NCBI GenBank assembly: GCA_039930785.1
Contig: JBDTTE010000001.1
Span: 182-64,181, forward strand
Direction: 5' to 3'
Length of the DNA stretch: 64,000 nt
From: Betaproteobacteria bacterium
GTDB lineage: Bacteria; Pseudomonadota; Gammaproteobacteria; Burkholderiales; JACQAP01
Shown piece by piece: positions 37,576-59,082 of this stretch. The position numbers were made by a program, and so were the translations under genes. The notes beneath the pieces were generated by a model. It saw only the letters and a list, made by a program, of their open reading frames with translations. It made no database searches and was not told the origin of the DNA. How positions within the stretch are numbered: position 1 is the stretch's first letter; the number at the start of each line of letters is the position of its first letter.

Positions 37576-37605
37576 TTGACCGGGAAACTTGCGGCCGGGT
37601 AGAAT
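37576..37605 (+). promoter_or_regulatory. Putative sigma70 promoter of the atp operon
   Basis: TTGACC (37576-37581), 18-nt spacer, TAGAAT (37600-37605), about 57 bp upstream of atpI. Confidence 0.45.
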
Positions 37606-37662
37606 CCGCAGGTTTTGCGATTCGCCAATCGCCCCGGTTGTAACCTGGTTCAGCGGTAAATC

Positions 37663-38049: not shown

Positions 38050-38084
38050 AGACAAGCGAATAAATAATCGAGTCCCGCAGCACT

Positions 38085-38888: not shown

Positions 38889-38900
38889 TTCTTCTGTTAA

Positions 38901-39206
<306 letters not shown>

Positions 39207-39242
39207 AAGCAGCCTGGCTTTGTCCCGATCAGGGAGAGGAAT

Positions 39243-39716
39243 ATGAATCTCAATTTTACGATGGTCGCACAGGGACTCGCGTTCCTGCTGTTCATCGGCT
39301 TCACGATGAAGTTCGTATGGCCGCCGCTGTTGAAGGCCATCGAGGCACGCCAGAAGCAGATCGCGGAAGGTCTCGCGGCGGCTGAGCGCGGCAAGCAGGA
39401 TCTCGAACTCGCTGCGAAGCGCGCGGGTGAGGAACTGCAACGTGCGCGGTTACAGGCTAACGAAATCGTCGCGCAGGCGGAAAAGCGCGGCGCGGCGGTA
39501 GTGGAAGAGGCCAAGGGTGCGGCCAAAGCGGAAGCCGACCGCATCGTCGCGGGGGCAAAAGCCGAGATCGAGCAGGAAGTCTTCCGCGCCAAGGAAGCGC
39601 TGCGCGCCCAGGTATCCGTACTGGCAGTTACCGGCGCCGAGAAAATCCTGCGACGCGAAGTCGACGCCAAGACGCATGCACAATTGCTGTCCGGCCTGGA
39701 AGCGGAGCTCAAGTAG
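39243..39716 (+). CDS. atpF: F0F1 ATP synthase subunit b
   Basis: 157-aa ORF with an N-terminal TM helix followed by a long charged helix. Confidence 0.93.
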
Positions 39717-39718
39717 CA

Positions 39719-40255
39719 ATGGCTGAACTCGCCACAATCGCCCGTCCTTACGCCGAAGCGGTCTATCGCACCGCAAAGCAGGGCAATGCGCTGCAGGAAT
39801 GGTCCGATGCGCTGGGACTGATCGCCGGCGTCTACAGTGATCCGCAGATGCAGGCGGCGATTGCCAACCCGAAGGTTGGCGCCGCCGACATCGAACGACT
39901 GCTACTCGCCATTTGCGGTGAGCGTGTCAACGCGGTGGCGCGTAACCTGATCCAGTTGCTCGTCCACAATCGCCGGCTCACGGTGGTGCCGGAAATTCGC
40001 GAGATGTTCGAGCAGCTCAAGCTGCAGGACGAAGGCAAGCTGGACGCGAAGATCAGCTCCGCCTATCCGATGGATGACGGCCAGCGCGACCACGTCGTGA
40101 AGATGCTGTCGACGCGCTTCAAGCGAAAAATCAATGCCACCGTGACCGTGGACCCCGAGTTGATCGGCGGTATCAAGGTCGAGGTGGGCGACAAGGTCTG
40201 GGATGCCTCGGTGCGAGGCAAGCTGCAGACCATGGCCGCAACCCTTACGAAATAG
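39719..40255 (+). CDS. atpH: F0F1 ATP synthase subunit delta
   Basis: 178-aa ORF starting ARPYAEAVY, in OSCP position. Confidence 0.93.
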   Translation: MAELATIARPYAEAVYRTAKQGNALQEWSDALGLIAGVYSDPQMQAAIANPKVGAADIERLLLAICGERVNAVARNLIQLLVHNRRLTVVPEIREMFEQLKLQDEGKLDAKISSAYPMDDGQRDHVVKMLSTRFKRKINATVTVDPELIGGIKVEVGDKVWDASVRGKLQTMAATLTK

Positions 40256-40267
40256 GAGTTCCAATCC

Positions 40268-41809
40268 ATGCAGTTGAACCCGTCCGAAATCAGCGAGCTG
40301 ATCAAGAGCAAGATCCAGAATCTCGCGACTTCATCCGAGGTGCGCACGCAGGGCACCGTCGTCTCCGTGACTGACGGCATCTGCCGCATCCACGGCCTCG
40401 CCGATGTGATGCAGGGTGAAATGCTGGAGTTTCCGAATAATACCTTCGGCCTCGCACTGAACCTCGAGCGCGATTCGGTCGGCGCCGTGGTGCTGGGTGA
40501 GTACGAACACATTTCCGAAGGCGATCCGGTCAAGAGCACCGGCCGCATCCTGGAAGTGCCGATCGGCCCGGAATTGCTGGGTCGCGTGGTTGATGCGCTG
40601 GGCCAGCCGATCGATGGCAAGGGTCCGATCAACGCCAAGTTGAACGACGTCATCGAGAAAGTTGCGCCGGGCGTAATCTGGCGCAAATCGGTTTCCCAGC
40701 CGGTGCAGACGGGCCTCAAGGCAATCGACGCAATGGTGCCGGTCGGCCGCGGCCAACGCGAACTGATCATCGGCGATCGCCAGACCGGCAAGACCGCGGT
40801 GGCGATTGATACCATCATCAATCAGAAGGGCAAGGACGTGTTCTGCGTGTACGTCGCAATCGGCCAGAAGGCATCGACCGTTGCGAACGTCGTACGCAAG
40901 CTCGAAGAGCATGGCGCGATGGCCTACACCATCATCGTCGCCGCGACCGCTTCCGAATCCGCAGCCCTGCAATATATCGCGCCGTATTCCGGCTGCACGA
41001 TGGGCGAGTACTTCCGCGATCGTGGACAAGACGCGCTGATCATTTATGACGATTTGACCAAGCAGGCCTGGGCGTATCGCCAGGTGTCTTTGCTGCTGCG
41101 TCGGCCGCCTGGTCGTGAAGCCTATCCCGGCGACGTATTCTATCTCCACTCGCGCCTGCTGGAACGCGCGGCACGCGTGAGCGAAGCCTGGGTCGAGCGC
41201 TTTACCGAAGGCAAGGTCAAGGGCAAGACCGGTTCGCTGACCGCGCTGCCGATCATCGAAACGCAGGCCGGCGACGTCTCGGCGTTCGTGCCGACCAACG
41301 TGATCTCGATCACCGACGGCCAGATTTTTCTGGAAACCGATTTGTTCAACGCCGGCATCCGTCCCGCCATCAACGCGGGCGTGTCAGTGTCCCGCGTGGG
41401 CGGTGCCGCGCAGACTAAAATCATGAAGCGCAAGGACACGGGCGGCGGCGCACGTCTCGCGCTCGCGCAATACCGTGAACTCGCGGCATTCGCGCAGTTC
41501 GCCTCCGACCTGGACGAATCGACGCGCAAGCAACTCGAGCGCGGTCGCATGGTCACCGAGCTGATGAAGCAGCAGCAATACCAGCCGCTGCAGGTCTGGG
41601 AAATGGCGCTGACCCTTTTTGCGGTCAACAACGGCTATTACGACGACGTCGATGTGAAGAAGGCGCTCTCGGCCGAAAAGTCCATGCGTGACTTCATCAA
41701 GACCAAGTTCGCGGCGCTGGCGGGTCGCATGGACAAGGATCTGACCGGCGACGACGAGAAGGCCCTGAACGAGGCGATCAAGGACTGGAAAAAGAACGGG
41801 AGCTACTGA
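40268..41809 (+). CDS. atpA: F0F1 ATP synthase subunit alpha
   Basis: 513-aa ORF with Walker A GDRQTGKT. Confidence 0.98.
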
Positions 41810-41877
41810 TCAAGCGGGCGCACGGGTTGTGATCCGCACGCAAACGATGATTCCGTAAACCGAACTTAAAGCACACG

Positions 41878-44212
<2,335 letters not shown>

Positions 44213-44234
44213 GGCGGCTTAAGGGATCCATCAG

Positions 44235-44654
44235 ATGGCCAATACTCTGCACGTCGACGTCGTCAGCGCCGAACAGCACATTTACTCCGGTGAAGCGGAA
44301 TTCGTCGTGCTTCCTGGTGAAGCCGGCGAGCTCGGTATCTACCCGCGCCACACGCCGCTCATCACCCGCATCAAGCCGGGTGCCGTGCGCATCAAGCCCG
44401 CGGGCGGCGGAGAGGAAAACCTCATTTTCGTCGCTGGCGGCATTCTCGAAGTTCAGCCGTCCCTGGTGACGGTGCTGGCGGACACGGCGATCCGCGGCGC
44501 CGACCTGGACGAATCCAAAGCGCTCGAGGCGAAGCAAAAGGCCGAAGAATCGCTGCGCAATGCCAAGGACAAGCAGGAAATCGCCACGGTCGAAGCCGAG
44601 CTGTCGATGCTTGCTGCGCAGCTCGCGGCGATCCGCCGGTTGCGTCGCAAATAA
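44235..44654 (+). CDS. atpC: F0F1 ATP synthase subunit epsilon
   Basis: 139-aa ORF, last gene of the atp operon. Confidence 0.94.
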
Positions 44655-44674: not shown

Positions 44675-44702
44675 AAAGGCGGCCGCGTGCCGCCTTTTTT
44701 GT
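44675..44702 (+). terminator. Rho-independent terminator of the atp operon
   Basis: The stem aaaggcggc / gccgccttt has a cgcgt loop and is followed by a T-run, 20 nt after the atpC stop. Confidence 0.85.
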
Positions 44703-44730: not shown

Positions 44731-44759
44731 TTGACAACCCCGTACCGGCTCAATAGGCT
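44731..44759 (+). promoter_or_regulatory. Putative sigma70 promoter of the ABC/M20/MdcDE/MatB operon
   Basis: TTGACA (44731-44736), 17-nt spacer, TAGGCT (44754-44759), about 60 bp upstream of the binding-protein ATG. Confidence 0.4.
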
Positions 44760-44820
44760 CATGTCTGCCCGATCATTCCCGTCGAACGCCGAGAAAATCA
44801 CCTGCAACGCGAGGTTCGCA

Positions 44821-45981
44821 ATGTCCCGTACCGAAAAAATACTGGCCTCTGTACTTCTGCTCGCGCTGTCGTGTTCTCCAGCATTCTCCAAAGAAACGGT
44901 GAAGCTCGTCTTCATCGGTCCGCTGACCGGCGGTGTGTCCGCCAACGGCCTGGGCGGACGCAATTCCGCCGACCTCGCAGTAAAACTGCGCAATGCCGAC
45001 GCGAACGCGAAATACACCTACGAACTGGTCGTGCTGGATGACGAATGCAAGCCGAACATCGGCGTGCAAGTCGCGACCAAAGCCGCGGCGGATCGCAAGA
45101 TCGTCGCCGGCGTAACGCACTATTGCTCGGCAGTCGCGATGGGCGCGATCGATGTCTATCACCGCTTCGGCTTGCCGGTCATCGTCTGGGGGGCGGTGCT
45201 CCCCGACATTACCTACGCGAACGACTACAAGGAAGTCCACCGCGTCAACGGCACCATGATCAACCAGAACGAAGTCGCCGCCGAGTTCATGACGGGGTTG
45301 AAGTACAAGAAGTGGGTTGTCATCCACGACACCACGGACTACGGCAAGGGCCACAACAAATACTTTTCCGCCGATCTGCAGAAGCGCGGCGGAACGATAC
45401 TCGGAACCTTCGGCGTCACGGCGGACCAGCAGGACTTCAATGCCGAGCTCACCAAGATCAAGGAACTCAAGCCGGAGGTCATCTACTTCGGCGGACTTAC
45501 GCCGATCGGCGTGCGCATTCGTTCGCAGATGGACAAGCTCGGCATCACCGCAGCGTTTCAGGGCACGTCCGGCATCGTGTCCGACGCCTTCATTGAAGGC
45601 CTCGGCCCGCTCGCCGAAGGCACGCTGGCTTTTCGGGAAGGCGCGCCTGCAGAGAAACTGCCAGGGGGCAAATTTTTTCTCGAGCAATACCAGAAACAAA
45701 ATTACGCAGAAGGGCCCGAGGCCTATGGTGCATTCGCCTATGCTGCAGCGAGCCTGATCATGGATACGGTCGAGAAGGTAGGGCCGGACCGCCAGAAAGT
45801 CATGGCCGAACTCGGGACGGTGAAAGACCACCAATCGATCGTCGGCAAGGTCACGTTCGACGACCATGGCCAGAACATGGTGCCGCTGATCACCAAATTT
45901 GTCGTTCAGGACGGCAAGTGGGTGGTCTGGGAAGATAGCGAATACGCGAAGGGCAAACGCAAGCTGCCACGCGCCCCGTAA
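44821..45981 (+). CDS. ABC transporter periplasmic substrate-binding protein, LivK/LivJ (type I PBP) family
   Basis: ORF track start is 44731. The likely start is the ATG at 44821 (MSRTEKILASVLLLALSCSPAFS signal peptide). Shows a Leu/Ile/Val-binding-protein family pattern. Confidence 0.88.
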   Translation: MSRTEKILASVLLLALSCSPAFSKETVKLVFIGPLTGGVSANGLGGRNSADLAVKLRNADANAKYTYELVVLDDECKPNIGVQVATKAAADRKIVAGVTHYCSAVAMGAIDVYHRFGLPVIVWGAVLPDITYANDYKEVHRVNGTMINQNEVAAEFMTGLKYKKWVVIHDTTDYGKGHNKYFSADLQKRGGTILGTFGVTADQQDFNAELTKIKELKPEVIYFGGLTPIGVRIRSQMDKLGITAAFQGTSGIVSDAFIEGLGPLAEGTLAFREGAPAEKLPGGKFFLEQYQKQNYAEGPEAYGAFAYAAASLIMDTVEKVGPDRQKVMAELGTVKDHQSIVGKVTFDDHGQNMVPLITKFVVQDGKWVVWEDSEYAKGKRKLPRAP

Positions 45982-46007: not shown

Positions 46008-46925
46008 ATGGACATCGGCGTTGCCGGGCAATACGTCCTGAACGGTTTGATGCTGGGCGTGATCTACGCAATGGTCGCGGTCGGCTTCACGTTGTTCTTC
46101 GGCGTCCTGGACGTCATCAAGTTTTCGCATGGCGACGTGGTAATGGTTGGCGCCTTTGTTGCGCTCGCGGTCTTCGCCGGCCTGCACACCGCTGGAATCT
46201 CCTCCCCCCTGATTCTTCTGCTGGCCGCCACCGTCGCGGCATTTGCTGCCATGGCGGCACTCGGAGCGCTGATTGCCCGGTTTCTGGTATTGCCGCTGCG
46301 CAAAGCGCCAGCGCTGAATACGCTGCTGATGACCCTGATGCTGGGCCTGGCGCTACGCGAAGCCGTTCGGCTGTTCTATCCGAACGGCTCCAATCCGAAA
46401 CCGTTTCCGCGACTACTGCCCGCGGATGCCTACGCATTCGGCAGTTTCACCCTGCGCCTCGATAGCCTGATCCTCCTCGTCGGCGGTGTGCTGGCCATTG
46501 TGGTCGTGCACCTGACCATCAACCGCACCCGACTGGGCCTGGCGATCCGCGCGGTCGCGCAGGATCCGGAAACCGCGCGCGTGATGGGCGTGAACTTCGA
46601 ACGCACGGTCATGATCACGTTCGGCATCGGCTCTGCGCTGGCGGCACTGGCGGGCATCACAGACGGGCTCTACTACAACGAGGTCAACTTCGGCATGGGT
46701 CTGCTGCTCGGCGTGATCGGCTTCAGCGCGGCGGTGGTGGGCGGCCTTGGTAACATCTACGGCGCAATCCTCGGCGGGTTCCTCTTCGCTGCGCTGCAGA
46801 CTGTCGGAGCAATCTGGTTCTCGGTGCCGGCTTACAAGGATGTTTTCGCGTTCGCCACAGTGATCCTGCTGATGGCGTGGAAGCCGACCGGCCCCATAGC
46901 CGAGCGAACGGCGGAGCGGGTATAG
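46008..46925 (+). CDS. ABC transporter permease, LivH family
   Basis: 305-aa polytopic ORF with QYVLNGLMLGVIYAMVAVGFTLFFGV. Confidence 0.9.
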   Translation: MDIGVAGQYVLNGLMLGVIYAMVAVGFTLFFGVLDVIKFSHGDVVMVGAFVALAVFAGLHTAGISSPLILLLAATVAAFAAMAALGALIARFLVLPLRKAPALNTLLMTLMLGLALREAVRLFYPNGSNPKPFPRLLPADAYAFGSFTLRLDSLILLVGGVLAIVVVHLTINRTRLGLAIRAVAQDPETARVMGVNFERTVMITFGIGSALAALAGITDGLYYNEVNFGMGLLLGVIGFSAAVVGGLGNIYGAILGGFLFAALQTVGAIWFSVPAYKDVFAFATVILLMAWKPTGPIAERTAERV

Positions 46926-46927
46926 GC

Positions 46928-48085
46928 ATGCGCGCCGAAACCACGTCACGATTGATCGTCGTTCTCGGTATCGCATTGTGTGCGCTGGCTGGCTGGCTGT
47001 TCCTCGACGTCGAATCCCAATGGAAGGTCGTGCTGCTCGCCGGCGTTGTCATTGCGACATTGCTAGTGGCAGAGCGAGCGGGATGGCGACAGCGCTTCGA
47101 AACCGCGTCATCCGAAAACGGGATACTGGCTTCCACGCTTGCGCTCGTTGCCGTCGCCCTCATCGCCGCCGTCCTGCACGAATCCCATTTCGCGCTGCTG
47201 ATGCTGGCGACAGTCGCGTTGTACGCCACCGCCTGTCTTGGCCTGACCATCCAGTTCGGCTATGCCGGCATCGCGAATTTCGCGGGCGCTGCGTTTTTCG
47301 GAATCGGTTGCTATACCGCTGCGATGCTGGGCACGCACACGTCCCTGCCGCACTTGCTGAATGTGCTCGCCGGTGGGGCGATGGCAGCGCTAATTGGCTC
47401 GATATTGATCCTGCCGATCCTGCGCACGCGTGGACATTACGCCGCATTGATCACCATCGCGTTCGGCATCCTGTTCAAGACGTTTCTCGAGGTCAACGAC
47501 ACGCTCGGTGGCCCGCAGGGGTTGAAAGTCCCGGGCATGAAGATCCTGGGCTGGTCGTTCAACGATCCCATCCACTTGCCCGGCGGCGTCGAGGCTTCGT
47601 TCTATCTGAACTACGTTGTGCTGGCCGTCGCGCTCGCATTCGCCGCTTACGTGCTGGTCAAGCGCCTCGAATCTTCCTGGATCGGATTGAGCTTCGACGC
47701 GCTGCGCCTCGACGAGACTGCTGCCGCCGTCTCCGGCATCGACATCGCGAAGTGGAAGATCCTCGCTTTCGTTCTGGGCAACTTCCTGGCTGGCACCGCC
47801 GGTGCGGTGTACGCGATGATGAGCGGGTTCATCGCGCCGAACAGTTTCACGTTCGGTGACTCGCTGATCCTGGTGTCGATCGTCATCCTCGGCGGCGTTG
47901 GCAATCCACTTGGCGTCATCCCGGCTTGCCTGTTGCTGCTGGTGCTGCCGGAAAAGCTCCAGGCGATCCAGGAATACCGTTTCCTGATTTACGCGCTGCT
48001 CGTGATCCTGATCCTGCTGTTCCGGCCTGACGGGCTGTTGCCGCGGCGCATGCGTAAGTATTCTCCCCCGCGGGTGGGTACGTGA
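46928..48085 (+). CDS. ABC transporter permease, LivM family
   Basis: ORF track start is 46877. The likely start is the ATG at 46928, directly after the LivH-like stop. Polytopic, with the GYAGIANFAGAAFFGIGCY pattern. Confidence 0.88.
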   Translation: MRAETTSRLIVVLGIALCALAGWLFLDVESQWKVVLLAGVVIATLLVAERAGWRQRFETASSENGILASTLALVAVALIAAVLHESHFALLMLATVALYATACLGLTIQFGYAGIANFAGAAFFGIGCYTAAMLGTHTSLPHLLNVLAGGAMAALIGSILILPILRTRGHYAALITIAFGILFKTFLEVNDTLGGPQGLKVPGMKILGWSFNDPIHLPGGVEASFYLNYVVLAVALAFAAYVLVKRLESSWIGLSFDALRLDETAAAVSGIDIAKWKILAFVLGNFLAGTAGAVYAMMSGFIAPNSFTFGDSLILVSIVILGGVGNPLGVIPACLLLLVLPEKLQAIQEYRFLIYALLVILILLFRPDGLLPRRMRKYSPPRVGT

Positions 48086-48855
48086 CCCCGATTCTCGCGG
48101 CGCAGGGATTGACCGTTCGCTTCGGCGGCCTGACTGCGCTGGATGCATTCGATCTGCAGTTGCATGCGCAGGAAATACTGGGGCTGATCGGGCCGAACGG
48201 CTCTGGCAAGACTACATTTTTCAACGCACTGACCGGCTTGTATCGCACAGCCGCAGGAAGTGTTCGTGTCGACGGCGCCGATCTCACCGGCGCGACACCG
48301 CAAGCGATCAGTCGTGCAGGAATGGCGCGTACGTTCCAGCGCTCACGCCTGTGCCTGCCGCTGTCCGTGTTCGACAATCTGATGATCGGCAATCACCGCA
48401 ATCTGGACCATGGACTGGTAGCGAACCTGTTCCAGCGCGGTGCGCTGCTGCGCCAGGTCGAGGAATGGACGATCAAGGCGGGCGACCTGCTGCGCATGTT
48501 CAGCGCGCCGCTTGCGGATCGGTTGCAGGATCCGGTGGCTTCGCTCTCGATGATCGACCGCAGGCGTATCGAAGTCTGCCGCGCATTGATTTCCGATCCG
48601 CGCATCCTGCTGCTCGACGAACCGTCCGCCGGAATGACGCATGACGAAACGCATGAACTGATGGACGACCTGCTGGCGATCAGGGACAAGCTGCCTTCGC
48701 TTGCCGTCATCCTGATCGAGCACGAAATGAACGTGATCGAACGGGTCACGGATCGATGTGTGGTGCTGAACTATGGACGCAAGATCAGCGAAGGCGTCTA
48801 TCGGGTCGTTGCCGCCGATGAAAACGTGCGCAAGGCCTATCTCGGTGAAGACTGA
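48082..48855 (+). CDS. ABC transporter ATP-binding protein, LivG family
   Basis: 257-aa ORF with Walker A GPNGSGKTT and Walker B LLLDEPSAGM. Confidence 0.92.
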   Translation: MTPILAAQGLTVRFGGLTALDAFDLQLHAQEILGLIGPNGSGKTTFFNALTGLYRTAAGSVRVDGADLTGATPQAISRAGMARTFQRSRLCLPLSVFDNLMIGNHRNLDHGLVANLFQRGALLRQVEEWTIKAGDLLRMFSAPLADRLQDPVASLSMIDRRRIEVCRALISDPRILLLDEPSAGMTHDETHELMDDLLAIRDKLPSLAVILIEHEMNVIERVTDRCVVLNYGRKISEGVYRVVAADENVRKAYLGED

Positions 48856-48856
48856 C

Positions 48857-49588
48857 ATGGCCGGATTGCGCAAGGGTAGTGGCCTGGTGCTGGAGAACCT
48901 GCGCGTGGGTTACGACCAGGCCGACGTTCTCACCGGCGTTTCGCTCGAGGTCAGGCCCGGCGAGATCACCTGCATCCTCGGCGCAAACGGAGCCGGCAAA
49001 ACCACGCTGATCCGAGCCATCCTGGCGTTAACGTCGCCACGTAGCGGCCGCGTCCTGCACGACGGCGAAGACATCACGTCACTGCCCACGCATCGCATTG
49101 CCGGTCGCGGTATCGCCTGCATTCCCGAGGGCCGGCGGATTTTTCCGCGCATGAGCGTGCGCGAGAATCTGCTGATCGGCGCGTACCTGGATCGAAGCGC
49201 GGACCTGCCGGCAAGAATGTCGGAAGTGTTCGAAACCTTTCCCCGGCTCAGGGAGCGGGCCGGCCAGCTTGCGGGTACCATGTCCGGAGGAGAGCAGGCC
49301 ATGTTGTCGATCGGTCGCGGACTGATGGCGGCACCGCGCGTCCTGATTATCGATGAACCGTCTCTCGGATTGTCGCCGCTGTTCGTGAAGGAAAATTTCA
49401 ACGTCATCCGCCGCATCAACGAGGCCGGCGTGACGATCCTGCTGGTGGAGCAGAACGTGAAACAGACGCTCGCCATTGCGCATCGCGGATACGTTCTGTC
49501 GCAGGGCAAGGTCACCGCGGAAGGCGAAGCCGCAGCGTTGCGGGAAAACGCCGAGGTTCGTGCCGCGTACTTCGGCAAAAAGAATTAG
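48857..49588 (+). CDS. ABC transporter ATP-binding protein, LivF family
   Basis: ORF track start is 48773. The likely start is the ATG at 48857, 1 nt after the LivG-like stop. Has GANGAGKTT, the signature MSGGEQ and IIDEPSLGL. Confidence 0.92.
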   Translation: MAGLRKGSGLVLENLRVGYDQADVLTGVSLEVRPGEITCILGANGAGKTTLIRAILALTSPRSGRVLHDGEDITSLPTHRIAGRGIACIPEGRRIFPRMSVRENLLIGAYLDRSADLPARMSEVFETFPRLRERAGQLAGTMSGGEQAMLSIGRGLMAAPRVLIIDEPSLGLSPLFVKENFNVIRRINEAGVTILLVEQNVKQTLAIAHRGYVLSQGKVTAEGEAAALRENAEVRAAYFGKKN

Positions 49589-49597: not shown

Positions 49598-50728
49598 ATG
49601 GCAGCACAGACAAACGCGCTCGAACTGACGAAGCAGATCGTGCGCATGAATACGATCAATCCACCGGGCCAGGAAGAACAATGCGCCCGCCACCTCGGCG
49701 CCCTGCTCGAAACCGCCGGCTTCCGGGTCCGTTACCACGACCTGGGCCCCAAACGCGCGAACCTGGTCGCGACCATCGGTGGCTCAGCCGATAAAGCGCC
49801 GCTGTGCTTCACCGGTCACATCGATACCGTCCCGCTGGGCGCGGCGCAATGGAAGATGGATCCATTTGCCGCGGATACGCAAGATGGCCGGTTGTATGGA
49901 CGCGGCACCAGCGACATGAAGTGCGGCGTTGCGGCTTTTGTCGTCGCGTCGTTGAATCTCGCGAATAAACTGCAACGTTCGCCCGGGCTGGAACTGGTGA
50001 TCACCGCTGGCGAGGAGACGGGTTGCGAAGGCGCCTTCCATCTCACGCACAAGAGCGGCGCACTCGGGCGCGCCGGTGCGGTTGTGGTGGGCGAGCCGTC
50101 CTCCAACTTTCCCTTTGTTGGCCACCGCGGCGCTTTCTGGTTGAATGCGCGCACGCGCGGCGTAACGGCGCACGGCTCGATGCCCGAGAAGGGCGTCAAC
50201 GCCGTGTTCAAGGCGGCGCGCGCTGTTGCCATCCTGGAAAAATTCCGCTTCACGAATCCCCCGCACCCGCTGATGGGACAGGCCACGCTGAATGTCGGCA
50301 CGATCCACGGCGGGCTGAACATCAACTCTGTACCCGACGAAGCCGTCATCGGTGTCGACATTCGTACCATTCCCGGGATCAAGCACGCTGACCTGAGGGC
50401 CGAGCTCGTGCGCCAGCTCGGCACCGACGTCGAGCTTGAGACCCTGCTCGATCTTGAGAGCGTATTCACCGAGCCCACGCATCCCTGGATCCAGGAGGTC
50501 TTCGAGATCACGCGTCCTTTCCTCAGCGAGGCGCCGCAGGCCCGGGTTGCAACGTATTTCACCGACGCGGCCGCGCTGAACGTCGCCTACGGCACGCCGC
50601 CCACCGTCATACTCGGTCCGGGCGAAGCACAGATGGCGCACCAGACCAACGAATATTGCGTGGTGGATCGCATTTCCGAGTCGGTGTCGATCTACGAGGA
50701 GATTGCGCGGCGCTGGTGCGGCATCTGA
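49598..50728 (+). CDS. M20-family metallohydrolase (ArgE/DapE/ACY1-like deacylase)
   Basis: 376-aa ORF with HIDTVP, GRGTSDMKCG and the GEETG metal-ligand pattern. Confidence 0.85.
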   Translation: MAAQTNALELTKQIVRMNTINPPGQEEQCARHLGALLETAGFRVRYHDLGPKRANLVATIGGSADKAPLCFTGHIDTVPLGAAQWKMDPFAADTQDGRLYGRGTSDMKCGVAAFVVASLNLANKLQRSPGLELVITAGEETGCEGAFHLTHKSGALGRAGAVVVGEPSSNFPFVGHRGAFWLNARTRGVTAHGSMPEKGVNAVFKAARAVAILEKFRFTNPPHPLMGQATLNVGTIHGGLNINSVPDEAVIGVDIRTIPGIKHADLRAELVRQLGTDVELETLLDLESVFTEPTHPWIQEVFEITRPFLSEAPQARVATYFTDAAALNVAYGTPPTVILGPGEAQMAHQTNEYCVVDRISESVSIYEEIARRWCGI

Positions 50729-51993
50729 TGTCCGCAGAGGCGTTTTCCGCCACGCCGCCGGCGCAAAGGATCGCCGGGCTCTTCGACGCTGGTTCGATTG
50801 TGGACCCGCAAGCGCGATCGTTGGGTTCGCTCTGCGCCGGCGATGGCGCGATCGGCGGACGTGAAGTGACGATCGTCGCGACGGATCGGCAAGTCGCCGG
50901 CGGATCGCTCGGCGTCGCCGAGGCGACGGCGTTGTGCGCACTGATGCAACACAGCCATGAAGAGCAGCGAGCGTTCATTTTCTGCCTGGATTCCGCGGGT
51001 GCGAGACTGGATGAAGGACTGCCCGCCCTGGGCGCATTTCGTCAGCTCTATCGAACAATGCTCGACCTCCGGCTCGCCGGAATGCCGCTGCTTGCACTGG
51101 TAGGCAGGGACTGCTTCGGCGGCGCTAGCATGCTCGCCGCAACTTGCGAACATCGCGTCTACAGCGAAAATTCACGACTCGCGATGTCCGGTCCCGCCGT
51201 CATCCAGGCGCTCGGGGGACGGTCCGAACTCGATGCGTCGAACATCGCTGCGGTTACTGCGCTCATGGGCGGCGCAGCGCGCCGGCAACTCAGTACCACG
51301 GACACGTTAAGCAGCGACACGATCCTTGCGTATCGCACCGCGGCGCTGGACTGGATAGGCGATCGCACGCGCGTGGACAAACCCGACCTGATCCAGCAGC
51401 ACAATCGTCTCGGCACGCGCTTGATGGTGCAAGGCATGACGCCTTCCGCGCCTGTGGACGCCGGAGATAACCTGCCATCCATGCTCCAGGAAATCATTCC
51501 ACGGGACATCCAGGTGCACCGGACGGACGGCGTGCTCGTCGCTCGAAAGGGCGAAGGTACGTCGAACGCGTTTTTCGGATTCGTGGACCGCGAACCGGTT
51601 GGCGCGCTCGCAGCCTGGACCCTTGCGGGAGAATGCCTTGCGTTCGCCGACGAACGTCCGGGGGAGGCCGTGACGATTTTTCTGGATGCGCCGGGCCAGG
51701 CGCCTACCCTGCGCGACGAGCGGGTCATTCTTTCCGAGTACGTCGCGCATCTCGCGCTCGTACTGTCTGAATTGCGCATCCGGGGACATCGCGTGACCTT
51801 GCAGGTACTGGGCGACGCCGCTGGCGGAATTTATGTCGCGCTGGCCGCGCCGGCGGTTCGCGTGGTCGCGCTGCCCGGAGCCAACGTGCAGGTACTGCCG
51901 CCGGCGGCCGTGGCGCGCGTTCTTCGAGGGCGCGATGCAGCGAGTGGCGTCGAGGACTACATGCGCGCTGGCGTCATCGATACGCTTATATGA
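50728..51993 (+). CDS. Carboxyltransferase-like protein resembling a fusion of malonate decarboxylase beta (MdcD) and gamma (MdcE) subunits
   Basis: ORF track start is 50656. The likely start is the ATG at 50728, overlapping the M20 stop (ATGA). The N-terminal half (RIAGLFDAGS...GGSLG...LDSAGARLDEG...CFGGASMLA...RLAMSGPAVI) follows the MdcD pattern as I recall it. The C-terminal half (IFLDAPGQ...RDERVILSEYVAHLA...RGHRVTLQVLGDAAGG) follows the MdcE pattern. Confidence 0.65.
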   Translation: MSAEAFSATPPAQRIAGLFDAGSIVDPQARSLGSLCAGDGAIGGREVTIVATDRQVAGGSLGVAEATALCALMQHSHEEQRAFIFCLDSAGARLDEGLPALGAFRQLYRTMLDLRLAGMPLLALVGRDCFGGASMLAATCEHRVYSENSRLAMSGPAVIQALGGRSELDASNIAAVTALMGGAARRQLSTTDTLSSDTILAYRTAALDWIGDRTRVDKPDLIQQHNRLGTRLMVQGMTPSAPVDAGDNLPSMLQEIIPRDIQVHRTDGVLVARKGEGTSNAFFGFVDREPVGALAAWTLAGECLAFADERPGEAVTIFLDAPGQAPTLRDERVILSEYVAHLALVLSELRIRGHRVTLQVLGDAAGGIYVALAAPAVRVVALPGANVQVLPPAAVARVLRGRDAASGVEDYMRAGVIDTLI

Positions 51994-53492
51994 ACAACCC
52001 CAACTTATACGCGGCGGCTTCCGCTTCGATCGAAGCGGGACGGGATCGCGTGCTGATCGAAACGGACGACGGTCGCACATTTACCGGCGCGGACTTCGAA
52101 CGCGAATCGGCACGCTTCGCGGCGCTACTGATTGCGTCCGGAGCGGTACGCGGCGATCGCATCGCGGTGCAGGTCGATAAATCGCCGGCCGCGCTGTTTT
52201 TATATCTGGGCTGCCTGCGCGCGGGACTGGTTTTTCTGCCGTTGAATACGGCGTATCAGCGCGGCGAGCTGGCTTACTTTCTGAGCGACGCGCAGCCGTC
52301 CATCATCGTCTGCCGGCCACAATCCGCGCAGATAATGCGCGAACTTGTCGAGGAAAAAGCACGGCTATTCACGCTCGATGAAAACGGCGCCGGTTCGCTC
52401 GCGGACGCGGCGTCATCGCTGCCGACGGAATTCAAAACCGCGGAATCCGCGCCCGACGACCTCGCGGTGATCCTGTATACATCGGGCACGACGGGTCGAT
52501 CCAAGGGCGCGATGGTGACCCATCACAACCTGGTTTCCAACGCGCGGGTGCTGGTAGATCGGTGGGCATTCACCGAGCGTGACGTGCTGCTGCACGCATT
52601 GCCGATTTTTCATATCCACGGGCTCTTTGTCGCCAATCACTGTGCGCTGCTGTCCGGCGCGAAAATGCTCTGGCACCGCAAGTTCGATGCAAAGCTTGTG
52701 TTGCGCGATCTGGCGCGTGCGACGGTGATGATGGGCGTGCCGACGTTCTACACGCGACTTCTGGCCGAAACCACATTCGGGCGAGAAGCCTGCGGCGACA
52801 TGCGCCTGTTCATTTCGGGTTCCGCACCCCTGTTACTAGAGACGTTCGTCGAATTCGAGCAGCGCTCGGGACGGCGCATCCTCGAGCGCTACGGCATGTC
52901 CGAATCGGGCATGATTTGTTCGAACCCGCTGGAGGGAGAACGCCGTGGCGGCAGTGTCGGCTTCCCGCTGCCGGGCGTATCCTTGCGGATCGCGGACGAG
53001 TACGACAAGCCGCTGGCGCAGGGCGACATCGGCGGCATCCAGATCAAGGGCGAGAATGTATTTGCGGGATACTGGCGCATGCCGGAAAAGACGCGCGAGG
53101 AATTCACCTCCGACGGTTTTTTTCGCACGGGCGACGTGGGCACCATCGACAGCGACGGGTATGTCAGCATTGTCGGGCGCGCCAAGGATCTCATCATCTG
53201 CGGCGGCTATAACGTCTATCCAAAGGAAATCGAACTCGCCCTCGACGCGATGCCGGGCATAGCGGAATCCGCCGTCATCGGCGTGCCCCACGCGGATTTC
53301 GGCGAAGCAGTCGCCGCAGTTGTGGTCGCGAGGAAAGACGCAAAACTCGATGCCGATGCCATCGTTGCCGAACTGAAAAAGAACTTTGCGAATTACAAGG
53401 TGCCGAAGCGTTTGTACGTGGTGGACGATCTGCCGCGCAATGCGATGGGCAAGGTACAGAAGGTGCTGCTGCGCGAGCGTTATGGGAAATAA
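51990..53492 (+). CDS. matB: Malonyl-CoA synthetase-like AMP-dependent ligase (MatB family)
   Basis: 500-aa ORF, with its ATG overlapping the upstream stop (ATGA). Has the AMP-binding motif YTSGTTGRSKGA. The block DRIAVQVDKSPAALFLYLGCLRAGLVFLPLNTAY closely resembles rhizobial MatB as I recall it. Confidence 0.7.
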   Translation: MNNPNLYAAASASIEAGRDRVLIETDDGRTFTGADFERESARFAALLIASGAVRGDRIAVQVDKSPAALFLYLGCLRAGLVFLPLNTAYQRGELAYFLSDAQPSIIVCRPQSAQIMRELVEEKARLFTLDENGAGSLADAASSLPTEFKTAESAPDDLAVILYTSGTTGRSKGAMVTHHNLVSNARVLVDRWAFTERDVLLHALPIFHIHGLFVANHCALLSGAKMLWHRKFDAKLVLRDLARATVMMGVPTFYTRLLAETTFGREACGDMRLFISGSAPLLLETFVEFEQRSGRRILERYGMSESGMICSNPLEGERRGGSVGFPLPGVSLRIADEYDKPLAQGDIGGIQIKGENVFAGYWRMPEKTREEFTSDGFFRTGDVGTIDSDGYVSIVGRAKDLIICGGYNVYPKEIELALDAMPGIAESAVIGVPHADFGEAVAAVVVARKDAKLDADAIVAELKKNFANYKVPKRLYVVDDLPRNAMGKVQKVLLRERYGK

Positions 53493-53526: not shown

Positions 53527-54378
53527 ATGGATTGGGGAGGCGGCAGGCGCAGCGAGAACGTTGAAGACCGGCGCGGCATCGGCGTGGGTGGCATCGCCGG
53601 CGGCGGTATCGGTGTCGTGGTCATTGCGCTCATCGCGATGTTCCTCGGCGTGGATCCGCGGGTAGTCCTGCAGGAAATGGGACAAGGACAAACGCAGGCG
53701 CCGACAGAACATGCGGTGCCGGTCGATCCGGCGCAGGACAAACTCAAGGACTTCGTGTCGGTCGTGCTGGCCGACACCGAGGATACCTGGGGCGAAATAT
53801 TCAGTCGCGGCGGTTCGCAGTACGAAAAGCCGAAACTGGTGCTGTTTACCGGCGCGGTACGCTCGGCGTGCGGACTGGCGCAATCCGCGGTCGGTCCGTT
53901 TTATTGTCCCGGCGACCACAAGGTCTACATCGACCTCGATTTCTACAATCTGCTGGAGAAGCGCTTCGGCGCGCCCGGCGAATTCGCCAAAGCTTATGTC
54001 GTGGCCCATGAAATCGGCCACCATGTGCAGAATCTCCTCGGCATTTCCGCCAAGGTCCAAACTGCGATGCAGCGTGCCACCCCCGAGCGGGCGAATCAGT
54101 TGTCCGTGCGAATGGAGTTACAGGCGGATTGCTATGCGGGGATCTGGGCCAACCATGCCAATCGATCGCGCCACATCCTGCAGTCGGGTGACATCGAATC
54201 CGGTTTGAACGCGGCGGCCGCCATCGGCGACGACAAATTGCAAATGCAGTCGCGGGGCTATGTCTCGCCGGAAAGTTTCACGCATGGCACGTCGGCGCAA
54301 CGCGTGCAATGGTTCAAGCGCGGGCTCGAATCCGGTGAATTGTCGGCCTGCGACACGTTCAAGGCCGGACAGGCCTGA
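53527..54378 (+). CDS. ypfJ: YpfJ-family putative neutral zinc metallopeptidase
   Basis: 283-aa ORF with an N-terminal RRSENVEDRRG, one TM helix and an HEIGHH zinc motif. Confidence 0.85.
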   Translation: MDWGGGRRSENVEDRRGIGVGGIAGGGIGVVVIALIAMFLGVDPRVVLQEMGQGQTQAPTEHAVPVDPAQDKLKDFVSVVLADTEDTWGEIFSRGGSQYEKPKLVLFTGAVRSACGLAQSAVGPFYCPGDHKVYIDLDFYNLLEKRFGAPGEFAKAYVVAHEIGHHVQNLLGISAKVQTAMQRATPERANQLSVRMELQADCYAGIWANHANRSRHILQSGDIESGLNAAAAIGDDKLQMQSRGYVSPESFTHGTSAQRVQWFKRGLESGELSACDTFKAGQA

Positions 54379-54385: not shown

Positions 54386-55195
54386 TCAGAGCGAGGACGA
54401 GAACAGCGACCACAGCATGCGGGTCGCCAGGATGAAGAGGATCACCGCGAAAATCTTCGTGAGCCGCGTGACCGGCATGCTGTGCGCCATCCGCGCGCCC
54501 CAGGGCACGGTGATGAAGGTCCCCACCACGATGCCCACGAGCGCGGGCAGGTAAACATAACCCAGGCTCAGCGGTGGCAGGTGATCTTTGCCCAGCCCGG
54601 TGGCGATGAAGCCGATGGAACCTGCAATCGCGATCGGCAGACCGAGGGCTGCGGATGTGCCGATGGCATTGCGCATCGGCACGTTGCACATCGTCATCAG
54701 CGGAATGGTCATGACGCCGCCACCGACGCCGACCAGCGCGGAGAGGATGCCAATAATCACACCCGCCACATTCATGCCCCATTTGCCCGGAAGCTGGCGC
54801 GATGGTTTCGGCTTGGTGTTCATCAGCATTTTCGCCGCGGAGTAATAGACGAAAATCACGAAAAACACAGCGAGGTAGCTCGACTTCAGGGAATCCGCAA
54901 CAACGGCGCCGAGCAATGTGCCGGCGACCAGCCCCACCGAAGACGCGCGCACGATGTCCCAGCGCACTGCGCCATGTTTATGATGTGCACGCAGGCTCGA
55001 TATCGAAGTGAAGACGATGCTGGTAATGGACGTGCCGAGTGCCAGATGGAGCAAGCGATCGGCGGGGAAGCCCTGCAGGTTGAACAGATACACCATCAGG
55101 GTGACGAGGATCAGGCCGCCACCGATGCCGAGCAGGCCGGCAAAATAGCCTACGAACAACCCCATCAGCAGATAAACGAGCCACCACCATTCCAT
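54386..55195 (-). CDS. TauE/SafE-family (DUF81) membrane protein, second paralog
   Basis: 269-aa polytopic ORF with GLLGIGGGLILV and GVGGGVMTIPLM repeats. Confidence 0.82.
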   Translation of the reverse strand: MEWWWLVYLLMGLFVGYFAGLLGIGGGLILVTLMVYLFNLQGFPADRLLHLALGTSITSIVFTSISSLRAHHKHGAVRWDIVRASSVGLVAGTLLGAVVADSLKSSYLAVFFVIFVYYSAAKMLMNTKPKPSRQLPGKWGMNVAGVIIGILSALVGVGGGVMTIPLMTMCNVPMRNAIGTSAALGLPIAIAGSIGFIATGLGKDHLPPLSLGYVYLPALVGIVVGTFITVPWGARMAHSMPVTRLTKIFAVILFILATRMLWSLFSSSL

Positions 55196-55761: not shown

Positions 55762-55942
55762 TGGGGTGCCCCCCGCGCTTCTCCGTCAGACCGAATCTTG
55801 AACCTGAGTTCAAGGCGGTCGCTTTCCGAGCACATCAGGCGCTTCCGCAGAGGGACGCGCACAACAGCGCTACATTAGGCAGCAACCAGGGTATACAACA
55901 TTGGCTCAAAGAATTACAGCCTGACGAATCACGCAGGGGACA
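55762..55942 (-). ncRNA. ssrS: 6S RNA
   Basis: Lies immediately downstream of zapA on the same strand (conserved zapA-ssrS synteny) and is about 180 nt long. The 5' CCCCUGCG...CGUCAGGC pairs with the 3' GUCUGACG...CGCGGGGG to form the closing stem. GAGCC on the 5' side and the CCUUGAACUCAGGUUCAAG hairpin on the 3' side mirror E. coli 6S elements (CCUGAGCC; CCUUGAACCAAGGGUUCAAGG). Ends are approximate. Confidence 0.75.
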
Positions 55943-56469: not shown

Positions 56470-56635
56470 GGGTACACTATAATTACGAAAAGTGTGGAAA
56501 GTCAACTGCTAACGCATATTTTTGAATGTATTTTGGCACATATACGGCGAGATGCTGAGAAGTTTCTGCTCGGCCCTGGCAATCCTTGCCATCGCCCAAG
56601 AAATCCGGCCGGCCCGGCCGATCCGGTAGAATCGG

Positions 56636-56862
56636 CCAACGTTCTCGGGTGCCCCGACCAATTTCTTTGGCGGGGTCAAACGGGAAACAGGTGCGTGCCG
56701 GGCGGTTCCAGTCATCGCCACGGCACAATTCCTGTGCTGCCCCCGCAACGGTAAGCGACTACGGGGTGCGCCACTAAGCCACTGTGCGGTTTGGCCAGGT
56801 CATCGGCAAACGCATGGGAAGGCGGCGTACCTCAAAACGCAAGCCCGGATACCGGCCCATTG
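56636..56862 (+). promoter_or_regulatory. Cobalamin (B12) riboswitch
   Basis: Read directly: GGUGCCCC...AAACGGGAAACAGGUG...CAAUUCC..GCUGCCCCCGCAACGGUAA...GCCACUG...GGGAAGGC...AAGCCCGGAUACCGGCC (B12-box-like). These follow the conserved cobalamin aptamer order, upstream of a TonB-dependent receptor. Confidence 0.8.
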
Positions 56863-56994
56863 GACGCGAACGGAGATTCCGCGCGGGGCGGGGCATCCGG
56901 TGTCGGCGTGTCCTTCACCAGCCTTTTCCTTCGTTGAACTCCCTTTTTAGAACTCGCGCCTGCGGCGGGCTTGCGCAAACAGGGAGTAGTAGTC

Positions 56995-59082
56995 ATGAAA
57001 TTGGGATCATATGTACTACTGGTCGGGCTCGTGGCCGGAGCCAGCGCTTACGCACAGTCCAACCCTGATCTTGTTGCGAATGAAGTCGTCGTGACAGCAA
57101 CAAGATTCGAAGATACCTCCGCCGACAAACCCCTCAACATCACCGTCATTACTTCAGACGACATCCGTCGATCCCCTGCGCGAACCGTGCCGGAACTCCT
57201 GTCCTATCAGGCCGGCGTCGGTGGCCGCGACCTCTTCGGCAACAACGCATCGCAGGCGACGGTCGATATAAGAGGGTTCGGCGCGACCGCTGCGCAAAAT
57301 ACCCTCGTGCTGCTCGACGGCAGAAAAATGAACGATATTGACCTGTCGGGGGTTCAATGGTCTGCCTTACCTCTGGATTCGATCGAGCGCATAGAAATCA
57401 TTCGTGGTAGCGGCGCCGTCCAATATGGCGACGGAGCCGTTGGCGGCGTCATCAATATCATTACACGCAGGCCGGGCAAGGACGGCCCGCAGGCGACGAT
57501 CGCCGCAGGTATCGGAAGTTTCGACACCTTCCAGACACGCGCGAGTGGCGAATTGGGAAACGACACCGTGGGATTACGTATCGCGGGGGCGTACTACGAT
57601 TCCCAGGGCTATCGTGACAACAATCGCGACATTCAATCGACCGCCTCAGCGGAAGGACGCTGGAATGCTCCGATCGGAGACATCTCACTACGCTTTGCAG
57701 GTGCTAGTGAGAACCTCCGGCTACCGGGAGCACGGACAATTCAACCAAGCATTGGTCTTGACGAACTTGAGACCGATCGTAAGGGGACGTCGACGCCAAA
57801 GGACTACGCGCTCAGAGACGACAATGTATTGCAGCTCGATTGGTCACGCTCGGATGGTGCAATTTCCGAGGTAGTGGGGGTCTCTTACCGCAAAAAAGAA
57901 CAAAAGTCCTATTTCGACTTCAACGGATTCCCCGACTACCGTGAGATCGACCTCGATGTCCTCGCCCTGACGCCGCGAATGCGCATTGATCATTCGGAAC
58001 TCGGGGTGAACGGAAACCTCGTGTTGGGATTCGACTGGTACACGTGGAATTATGACCTCGCGCTGTCCGCGTCGCCGACTACGATCGCCCAGCCCGTGCA
58101 CAAGGTCGACGCCCGCCAGGAAAACCGGGCGATCTATATCCTCGAATCGCTAAAGCCGGCAACCGGCACGACGCTTACCGCCGGGGCTCGTGTCGAGTGG
58201 TTCACTATCAATGCCAACGACACCTTCGACGCAACCGCGCCCAACCCGACTTTCATAAATGGCGGATCGCCGAGCGGAGACCAGAATGACCGGCAATTTG
58301 CCTGGGAACTCGGCCTGAGACAGGCATTGACCGAGCAATGGTCGGCCTTTAGCCGCGCGACGCGGGCCTACCGGTTTGCGACTGTGGATGAGACCTACGA
58401 GAGCACCGCACTGTTCGAGCAGTCGTTCCAGTTTCTGCGGCCGCAAACGTCCATCACGTACGAGGTTGGCGTCGACTGGCGGGTAGCAGCTGCGGACGCG
58501 CGTGTCGGCATCTTTCAGACCGATGTGAAGGACGAAATCCATTTGGACGCCTTCACTTCAGGCGTGGGTAACACGAATCTTCCGCCCTCCCGGCGCCGCG
58601 GCATCGAACTCGAATTGGGTGTGCAACCTGCGGAACGGGTGGACCTGAGATTTACTTACACTTATACGGATCCCAAGTTCAGGGACGGTGAATTTCCAGG
58701 CGGCCCTTTTTCCACCACCAACGTGAACATTTCCGGTAAGACGGTACCGCTGGTGCCGCGGCACAAGGCGACGTTCAACGCAAATTGGGGCATCACACCG
58801 TCGCTGAATCTATCGGGAGCGGTGGTCTATGTAAGCGAACAATTCATGGATAACGACGAGGCGAACGATCTTGGCGTGAAGATTCCCGCATACACCGTCG
58901 TCGACCTCAAGCTAGCGCAGCAGATAGGCGCCGCGCGCTTCGGCGTCGCGATCAACAATGCACTCGGCGAAAAGTACTATAACTACGCGGTTCGTTCGCA
59001 GTTCACTCCCGACCGTTATAACGTGTATCCACTCCCCGAACGTACGTTCATGGCATTCGTGGAATACAAGTTCGGCAAGTAA
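56995..59082 (+). CDS. TonB-dependent outer-membrane receptor, likely corrinoid (BtuB-like) given the riboswitch
   Basis: ORF track start is 56971. The likely start is the ATG at 56995, after the AGGGAG SD (MKLGSYVLLVGLVAGASAYA signal peptide). Has a plug domain (VVVTATRFED...) and a C-terminal aromatic beta-barrel end (YKF). Confidence 0.9.
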   Translation: MKLGSYVLLVGLVAGASAYAQSNPDLVANEVVVTATRFEDTSADKPLNITVITSDDIRRSPARTVPELLSYQAGVGGRDLFGNNASQATVDIRGFGATAAQNTLVLLDGRKMNDIDLSGVQWSALPLDSIERIEIIRGSGAVQYGDGAVGGVINIITRRPGKDGPQATIAAGIGSFDTFQTRASGELGNDTVGLRIAGAYYDSQGYRDNNRDIQSTASAEGRWNAPIGDISLRFAGASENLRLPGARTIQPSIGLDELETDRKGTSTPKDYALRDDNVLQLDWSRSDGAISEVVGVSYRKKEQKSYFDFNGFPDYREIDLDVLALTPRMRIDHSELGVNGNLVLGFDWYTWNYDLALSASPTTIAQPVHKVDARQENRAIYILESLKPATGTTLTAGARVEWFTINANDTFDATAPNPTFINGGSPSGDQNDRQFAWELGLRQALTEQWSAFSRATRAYRFATVDETYESTALFEQSFQFLRPQTSITYEVGVDWRVAAADARVGIFQTDVKDEIHLDAFTSGVGNTNLPPSRRRGIELELGVQPAERVDLRFTYTYTDPKFRDGEFPGGPFSTTNVNISGKTVPLVPRHKATFNANWGITPSLNLSGAVVYVSEQFMDNDEANDLGVKIPAYTVVDLKLAQQIGAARFGVAINNALGEKYYNYAVRSQFTPDRYNVYPLPERTFMAFVEYKFGK

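Follow-up and report, generated by a model that had tools for sequence, protein, structure and literature searches.

A stretch of 64,000 nt from a Betaproteobacteria bacterium (contig JBDTTE010000001.1, positions 182 to 64,181 of the forward strand; hereafter the window) carries a gene in which a part resembling MdcD, the beta subunit of malonate decarboxylase (MDC), and a part resembling MdcE, its gamma subunit, are joined in one reading frame. Bacteria have two textbook routes of malonate utilization, namely the MdcA-E holoenzyme with its special acyl carrier protein (ACP) and the combination of MatB and MatA. Our analysis indicates that the fusion gene probably encodes a single-chain malonyl-CoA decarboxylase that depends on coenzyme A (CoA), is free of ACP and biotin, and displaces MatA. 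The simplest reading is a non-orthologous displacement, in which the beta-gamma core of MDC was fused, trimmed, and freed of ACP. The gene and its direct neighbors are as follows.

49598 to 50728, + strand: deacylase of the M20 ArgE/DapE family (TIGR01910, 243 bits, cut-off 217.6)
50728 to 51993, + strand: fusion gene for a single-chain MdcD-like plus MdcE-like protein of 421 amino acids (aa), proposed malonyl-CoA decarboxylase
51990 to 53492, + strand: MatB-type malonate-CoA ligase (malonyl-CoA synthase; PRK07514, 785 bits, cut-off 558)

The open reading frame of the fusion gene is intact over 421 codons, with its ATG at 50728 and its stop codon at 51991-51993 of the window. It shares bases with both neighbors, its ATG with the TGA of the M20 gene upstream (TGATG) and its stop codon with the ATG of the downstream matB (ATGA). 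The start at 50728 is supported by hundreds of full-length homologues with lengths of 417-424 aa. In the deduced protein, the Pfam domain Carboxyl_trans (PF01039) covers residues 34-180 (E 1.7e-19, 70.3 bits, gathering threshold 22.3) and the MdcE domain (PF06833) residues 288-399 (E 3.7e-21, 76.2 bits, gathering threshold 32.7). In agreement with this, the NCBIfam model of the MdcD beta subunit extends over residues 37-236 (124 bits) and that of the MdcE gamma subunit (TIGR03134) over residues 252-400 (98 bits). A first-pass annotation, made from the sequence alone, had described an MdcD-type N-half followed by an MdcE-type C-half, and Pfam, NCBIfam and alignments bear this out far beyond chance. 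The motifs on which it relied were verified by translation, namely SAGAR (residues 89-93), CFGGASMLA (129-137), RLAMSGPAVI (150-159) and YVAHLA as well as, in the C-half, LDAPGQAPTLRDE (319-331) and GDAAGGIY (362-369).

Alignment with the annotated MdcD and MdcE proteins of two mdc operons showed identities of 31-33% for the two halves. In pairwise alignments, the N-half corresponds to residues 1-257 of an MdcD of 297 aa and the C-half to residues 2-187 of an MdcE of 234 aa, both with 33% identity. Both carboxyltransferase halves are present, and the structure model described below is confident. A Pfam scan of the fusion protein gave no match to the MCD family, to which MatA belongs. Judged by these comparisons, the fusion protein is orthologous to neither MdcD nor MdcE and represents a separate, shorter family. 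The assumption that beta and gamma are two separate subunits in described systems holds only in part, as fusions of the canonical type exist as well (P0203, P0184, P0207 and P0211, about 533-562 aa), from which the present short family is distinct. These pass or nearly pass the equivalog scores for MdcD and MdcE (P0203 reaches 410 bits with the MdcD model and 226 bits with the MdcE model), so that the subunits of the classical enzyme are not always separate. Consequently, the fusion by itself is not what distinguishes the protein of the window.

A word-indexed search detected hundreds of full-length relatives (417-424 aa) with 59-89% identity to the fusion protein. Nearly all close relatives originate from soil and sediment metagenomes, the named ones being listed as "Burkholderiales bacterium". 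Members of the family occur commonly on metagenome contigs from soil and freshwater, and all but one of the taxon names attached to relatives are Betaproteobacteria or Burkholderiales. A HMMER search over 1.84 billion cluster representatives returned 90 representatives at E < 1e-30, most of them 380-450 aa long, which have the two-part architecture in common down to about 28% identity. Repeating the homologue search by profile yielded largely the same close clade again. The only match of the fusion protein to genome contigs was an unrelated one from Bizionia with 26% identity. Plasmid matches obtained by tblastn were canonical separate mdcD and mdcE genes and not family members, and an unannotated match from Cupriavidus was rejected as a family member since it resembles an ordinary mdc operon. 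Relatives are currently labeled "biotin-independent malonate decarboxylase subunit gamma", "acetyl-CoA carboxylase alpha/beta subunit" or "AMP-binding protein".

Conservation within the family was counted on an alignment of 82 sequences with a mean column identity of 37%. Invariant in all 82 members are G59, G62, G91, G131, G155, P156, R185, E331, G366 and L390. Comparison with 12 canonical MdcD plus MdcE sequences revealed positions common to both groups (G59, G62, G91, G131, G132, S154-G155-P156, R185, R231, D320 and E331) and others which are fixed differently in the family. The latter, each followed by its canonical counterpart in parentheses, are E65 (H), G97 (A), R105 (S), S134 (G), R143 (V), S336 (N), G366 (S) and L390 (M).

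The structure of the Pseudomonas aeruginosa MDC allows these positions to be viewed in terms of function. There, the backbone amides of MdcD Val121 and Gly162 form the oxyanion hole, MdcD Arg180 is near the CoA pyrophosphate, and MdcE Gln100, Tyr102 and Ser142 are near the malonyl group (PMC5534430). In MdcE, the substitutions Q100E and S142A each lower activity about 10-fold, Y102F alone has no effect, and activity is abolished in the double mutant Q100E/Y102F (PMC5534430). Equivalent residues were assigned through HMMER alignments to 5vip_B (MdcD) and 5vip_A (MdcE) combined with hand counting; counts refer to the 82 sequences.

MdcD Val121: A92, which follows the invariant G91
MdcD Gly162: G132, kept in 81 sequences
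MdcD Arg180: R150, arginine in 49 sequences
MdcE Gln100: Q324, glutamine in 37 and histidine in 45 sequences, nothing else
MdcE Tyr102: P326, variable in the family
MdcE Ser142: G366, invariant in the family

The corresponding motifs are located in the window at these positions.

50992 to 51006, + strand: SAGAR, residues 89-93, with the A92 amide as the predicted first oxyanion-hole amide (MdcD Val121)
51112 to 51129, + strand: CFGGAS, residues 129-134, with G132 as the predicted second oxyanion-hole amide (MdcD Gly162) and the family-specific S134
51691 to 51720, + strand: PGQAPTLRDE, residues 322-331, with Q324 at the position of MdcE Gln100 and the invariant E331
51811 to 51834, + strand: GDAAGGIY, residues 362-369, with the invariant G366 at the position of MdcE Ser142

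On the basis of these assignments, the thioester-polarizing machinery and the key polar residue at position 324 are kept in the fusion protein.

An AlphaFold2 model computed with the 82-sequence alignment has a mean predicted local distance difference test score (pLDDT) of 93.5 and a predicted template modeling score (pTM) of 0.94. It consists of two lobes rich in beta-beta-alpha units (residues ~20-235 and ~260-421). In a Foldseek search against the PDB, AccD6, PccB, transcarboxylase 12S and relatives were the top matches (E ~1e-21), with both lobes matching, and the model accordingly assigns the carboxyltransferase (crotonase) fold to both. The top alignments comprise ~430-490 columns with a template modeling (TM) score of just 0.37-0.44 and a root-mean-square deviation of 17-20 Å, so that the lobes of the model are arranged unlike the N and C domains within one PccB-type chain.

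The genomic surroundings of the family bear on the carrier and the partner enzyme. Loci were collected by exact-protein look-up (7 loci) and with a 10-sequence alignment as query (80 metagenome loci), and their genes were identified by tblastn with the proteins of the window. The order atpD-atpC-M20-fusion-MatB is near-universal, where a Liv-type ATP-binding cassette (ABC) transporter, a divergent Opp/Dpp ABC transporter or nothing stands between atpC and the M20 gene. A search for the same fusion in other genomes had been proposed with the first-pass annotation; it shows MatB directly beside the fusion gene in 60 of the 63 main-lineage loci that could be assessed, down to 38% identity of the fusion protein, and in unrelated contexts as well. 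Three main-lineage loci have no adjoining MatB. For the M20 gene, adjacency to the fusion gene holds in 64 of the 66 loci that could be assessed. Since the main-lineage loci share one chromosomal position, they represent one deep lineage and not many independent events.

Evidence from outside this position carries more weight and is provided by lineages in which the association has taken another form. In two of them, the MdcD-like, MdcE-like and MatB parts form one polypeptide of 899 and 939 aa, respectively (711-714 bits with the MatB model). The 899-aa triple fusion of Herbaspirillum autotrophicum (WP_083439307.1, labeled "AMP-binding protein") is encoded between a divergent GntR/FCD regulator and a tripartite ATP-independent periplasmic (TRAP) transporter of the DctPQM type, and the 939-aa triple fusion, from a different genome, adjoins an alpha/beta-hydrolase gene. 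Two further loci (L100 and L101) encode a fusion protein 30-34% identical to that of the window, with a MatB orthologue (50-55% identity) as the next gene, and L100 additionally contains a MatR-like regulator. For comparison, the Sinorhizobium meliloti locus has the order GntR / DctPQM / MatA / MatB, in agreement with the published matPQMAB and matRABC systems (PMC5237526). By tblastn, the Herbaspirillum locus contains homologues of MatR (40% identity), MatP (36%), MatQ (33%), MatM (44-48%) and MatB (53%), and the MdcD/MdcE-like module at the N-terminus of its MatB takes exactly the slot of MatA in S. meliloti.

MatA and the remaining components of the MDC holoenzyme are absent from the loci searched. 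MdcA, MdcC, MdcG, MdcB, MdcH and MadL/M, taken from two annotated mdc operons, had no tblastn match in the window and 92 loci of the family (844 kb), and S. meliloti MatA had none in the window, the Herbaspirillum locus or the family loci (same 844 kb, with the rest of the genomes lying outside the search). Canonical operons keep mdcA, C, G, B and H contiguous, as seen in the two annotated ones. The observation in the first-pass annotation that no ACP partner is encoded nearby agrees with the missing match for MdcC in the 64-kb window and the 92 related loci. Its suggestion of a carrier change from ACP to CoA is strengthened by the neighboring MatB orthologue and the lack of MDC genes in related loci, and further by the pairing with MatB down to about 30% identity, the fusions to MatB and the occupation of the MatA slot in Herbaspirillum. 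Pfam families of biotin carriers, biotin carboxylases and membrane decarboxylases were likewise not found among the called genes of the neighborhoods examined.

The substrate, products, lobe packing and physiological role that we infer would be connected as follows. Malonate would be imported as such, or freed from an imported conjugate, and converted with ATP and CoA to malonyl-CoA by MatB, whose gene is positioned downstream for translational coupling. The fusion protein would then convert malonyl-CoA to acetyl-CoA and CO2. Its MdcD-like N-lobe would bind CoA and polarize the thioester carbonyl through the main-chain amides of A92 and G132, and its MdcE-like C-lobe would set the free carboxylate beside the G366-G367 turn and Q324, a position occupied by Q or H throughout the family. 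After departure of CO2, the enolate would be held in the oxyanion hole and protonated. If the lobes are packed like the MdcD-MdcE heterodimer, the active site would lie within the single polypeptide. In this manner the protein would fill the role of the unrelated MatA in a matAB-type malonate utilization. MdcD-MdcE from P. aeruginosa and Acinetobacter calcoaceticus decarboxylates free malonyl-CoA in vitro (K0.5 100 µM, kcat 2.3 per s; PMC5534430). This turnover by the canonical pair makes the proposed chemistry credible; such chemistry is to be expected, and the new part is the context of the system.

Several findings weigh against a malonyl-CoA decarboxylase of this kind. The fusion protein stays below the NCBIfam equivalog cut-offs for MdcD (NF005530/TIGR03133, 124 bits vs 228 and 109 vs 278) and for MdcE (TIGR03134, 98 vs 237), and about 40 residues at the C-terminus of MdcD and about 47 at that of MdcE have no counterpart in the family. 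MdcE Ser142, the residue behind the S142A effect, is replaced by an invariant glycine, and the resulting G366-G/A367 turn resembles a C-domain motif of biotin-dependent carboxyltransferases. A distant clade of aquatic Burkholderiales (30% identity) has a gene of the benzoate-CoA-ligase family and no MatB, and in one locus no ligase lies beside the fusion gene. In one rival reading, the chemistry is unchanged but the substrate would be a malonyl-CoA substituted at position 2 (methylmalonyl-CoA, ethylmalonyl-CoA or a different alkyl- or amino-malonyl-CoA) and delivered by a promiscuous MatB-type ligase. MatB enzymes accept methylmalonate, the malonyl-binding residues deviate from those of canonical MdcE (Ser142 to glycine, the variable Tyr102 position, Q or H at 324), and the link of the distant clade to another ligase family would mean that the substrate range varies within the family. 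We nevertheless regard a substituted substrate as improbable for the protein of the window, because its ligase scores well over the cut-off for malonyl-CoA synthase and shares 59% identity with S. meliloti MatB, which is defined genetically (558 bits against Rhodopseudomonas palustris MatB, 4fuq), and because the layout of the Herbaspirillum locus is that of the malonate-specific matR/matPQM/matAB locus. A very small probability is assigned to a biotin-dependent carboxyltransferase of the 12S/PccB type, or of the MadC/MadD type, which would hand CO2 on to a biotin carrier whose gene lies elsewhere. MadC and MadD of Malonomonas rubra are homologues of MdcD and MdcE that act on a malonyl thioester and pass CO2 to a biotin carrier, working together with an ACP and a membrane decarboxylase. 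The invariant turn mentioned above is similar to the "YGG" motif in the C-domains of acyl-CoA carboxyltransferases, and a search with the single sequence scores the N-half equally against 12S/AccD6/PccB and MdcD. Profiles, on the other hand, favor MdcD and MdcE over mmdA (57 bits), accD (32) and AccA (16), position 324, where MdcE has Gln100 and 12S has Phe, is occupied by Q or H, the annotated neighborhoods are devoid of the biotin-related and membrane decarboxylase genes, and the protein is paired with a ligase in the manner of matAB.

It is scarcely probable that the protein serves as the beta-gamma part of a classical MDC holoenzyme whose MdcA, ACP and prosthetic-group enzymes are encoded elsewhere in the genome. 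The name "biotin-independent malonate decarboxylase subunit gamma" given to relatives at NCBI points in this direction, and the searches covered loci and not whole genomes; opposed to it are the 844 kb around 92 members without a match to MdcA, C, G, B or H, given the contiguity of canonical operons, together with the failed equivalog cut-offs, the missing C-terminal parts of both subunits and the conserved partner MatB, which is even fused to the protein in some lineages. An equally slight chance is given to a decayed or non-catalytic carboxyltransferase-like protein kept beside matB, for example as a malonyl-CoA-binding or regulatory protein. Its faster evolution compared to the neighboring genes (42% mean identity vs 63% for MatB and 68% for M20 across 31 loci) would fit a relaxed function of this type, but the oxyanion-hole glycines, the SGP motif, R185, E331 and G366 are invariant over 82 sequences, the frame is intact in hundreds of contigs, the structure model is confident and compact, and two in-frame fusions to MatB exist.

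A single-chain malonyl-CoA decarboxylase as proposed here can be related to several known systems. With MdcD-MdcE (P. aeruginosa 5VIP/5VJ1, Klebsiella, Acinetobacter) it shares homology in both halves, the beta-then-gamma order of mdcD-mdcE, the crotonase/carboxyltransferase fold of both halves, the glycine motifs of the oxyanion hole, SGP and the position equivalent to Gln100. In contrast to these subunits of ~290 and 235-265 aa, the fusion protein is one chain of 421 aa without the C-terminal segments of both, its loci lack MdcA, the ACP MdcC and the prosthetic-group enzymes, and its partner is a CoA ligase. Canonical-type MdcD-MdcE fusions are also one polypeptide, but with full-length halves at or near the equivalog scores. 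The resemblance to MatA of the rhizobial matRABC and matPQMAB systems is one of gene organization, as the fusion gene is immediately upstream of matB and overlaps it, is flanked in Herbaspirillum by a MatR-like GntR regulator and a MatPQM-like TRAP transporter, and would encode the same reaction, whereas sequence and fold are unrelated to the MCD family. PccB, AccD6 and transcarboxylase 12S likewise have two tandem crotonase-like domains per chain and a similar Gly-Gly/Ala turn in the C-lobe, but they exceed the fusion protein by ~100 residues, depend on biotin and form hexamers whose active sites lie between chains.

The fold, the chemistry and the logic of the pathway are already known. The proposed single-chain CoA-dependent form, its systematic pairing or fusion with MatB and its proposed substitution for MatA are apparently undescribed; in the literature searched, which covered few subscription journals, no paper describing the family or its link to MatB was found under MdcD/MdcE fusions, carboxyltransferase-type malonyl-CoA decarboxylases or N-malonyl deacylases. 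If the proposal is correct, the system would be a hybrid of both textbook routes, in which the catalytic core of MDC, minus the ACP machinery, uses the CoA thioester made by MatB and displaces MatA. It would add a small malonyl-CoA decarboxylase encoded by a single gene and, as a tool to engineer malonyl-CoA levels, a naturally occurring fusion of ligase and decarboxylase. The present labels are misleading, and metabolic reconstructions based on them would overlook malonate use or infer a nonexistent holoenzyme.

Within the window, the three genes named at the beginning belong to a larger unit of + strand genes separated by short gaps or overlapping. The unit is parted from the atp operon, whose atpC ends at 44654, by a terminator-like hairpin, and contains the following additional elements.

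44675 to 44697, + strand: terminator-like hairpin after atpC, 9-bp stem with 6 GC pairs followed by a T-run
44731 to 45981, + strand: periplasmic substrate-binding protein of a Liv-type ABC transporter, first gene of the unit (Peripla_BP_6, E 9e-42)
46008 to 46925, + strand: ABC permease, LivH/UrtB-like (BPD_transp_2, E 5.6e-46)
46877 to 48085, + strand: ABC permease, LivM-like, start codon uncertain (BPD_transp_2, E 4.1e-35; LivM model, 167 bits)
48082 to 48855, + strand: ABC ATPase, LivG-like (ABC_tran, BCA_ABC_TP_C)
48773 to 49588, + strand: ABC ATPase, LivF-like (LivF model, 240 bits, residues 38-268)
53527 to 54378, + strand: zinc metallopeptidase of the YpfJ type (Zn_peptidase, E 1e-117)

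Homologues of the LivF-like ATPase have lengths of 237-243 aa, and its true start is probably located further downstream. The nearest solved relatives of the binding protein are Leu/Ile/Val- and amino-acid-binding proteins of the LivJ type. The YpfJ-type peptidase gene may be the last gene of the unit and was found in just some of the related loci. For the M20 enzyme, the closest solved relatives are DapE and ArgE enzymes, but an assignment as housekeeping DapE or ArgE was rejected because its scores are below the equivalog cut-offs (131 vs 362 and 204 vs 298, respectively). Paralogues of the M20 gene occur in heterogeneous contexts, such as a hydantoinase cluster in Variovorax and a phosphotriesterase-like cluster in Pantoea, which are uninformative on the substrate.

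The linkage of M20 and transporter genes may point to a catabolism of malonyl conjugates that is not yet known. As a tentative and rather unlikely extension of the proposal, the operon would serve for the degradation of malonylated nitrogen compounds beyond the uptake of malonate. The amino-acid-type ABC transporter (peptide-type in sister lineages) would import an N-malonyl conjugate, for which plant N-malonyl-D-amino acids, N-malonyl-1-aminocyclopropane-1-carboxylate (N-malonyl-ACC) or ureidomalonate-like amides are candidates. DapE removes succinate, and by analogy the ArgE/DapE-like M20 enzyme could act as a demalonylase, from which MatB and the single-chain decarboxylase would channel the freed malonate to acetyl-CoA. 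An orthologous alpha/beta-hydrolase gene beside the decarboxylase-MatB pair (L099 8140-8967, L100 7505-8359, L101 1-831) occurs in three unrelated gene arrangements, with 72% identity between L099 and L100, and the encoded proteins show weak matches to esterases, meta-cleavage product (MCP) hydrolases and RutD. Such a hydrolase may release malonate from an ester or amide, and its repeated position suggests a general module of hydrolase, ligase and decarboxylase for malonyl conjugates.

Additional observations concern the related loci. In two long contigs of metagenome-assembled genomes, the M20 gene was called as two pieces (L004 8848-9979, L005 8948-9996), as were some transporter genes; this reflects either frameshift errors of the assembly or decay of M20, with decarboxylase and MatB being intact. 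In L082, L078 and L067 the M20 gene is entirely absent. The fusion protein evolves far faster than its neighbors, the figures given above being those of the 31 most distant loci, while AtpD is 85-95% identical in individually compared loci. Its identities in the metagenome loci L010-L089 fall into two groups of 58-74% and 38-45%. In the distant aquatic clade (L092/L093, 7037-15421), which is seen on many contigs, the gene lies inside a Liv-type ABC operon together with genes for a flavodoxin, the benzoate-CoA-ligase-family protein (806 bits), an alpha/beta-hydrolase and a 3-hydroxybutyrate dehydrogenase, and the substrate is possibly a different one.

The unit is located between atpC and a TauE/EVE/ZapA block, and the same place is found in nearly all related contigs. 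Upstream of it, the window harbors yidC, mnmE, TauE, gidA, gidB, parA, parB and the atp operon (29374-44654), a set typical of the vicinity of a chromosomal origin. Two genes for TauE/SafE-family membrane proteins flank the atp-malonate region (32465-33244, + strand, and 54386-55195, - strand). Further downstream, a 6S RNA was detected at 55766-55942 on the - strand (Rfam, 55.6 bits), and a cobalamin riboswitch at 56631-56874 on the + strand (Rfam, 89.8 bits) directly precedes the gene of a TonB-dependent receptor (56971-59082), probably one of the BtuB type for B12 uptake.

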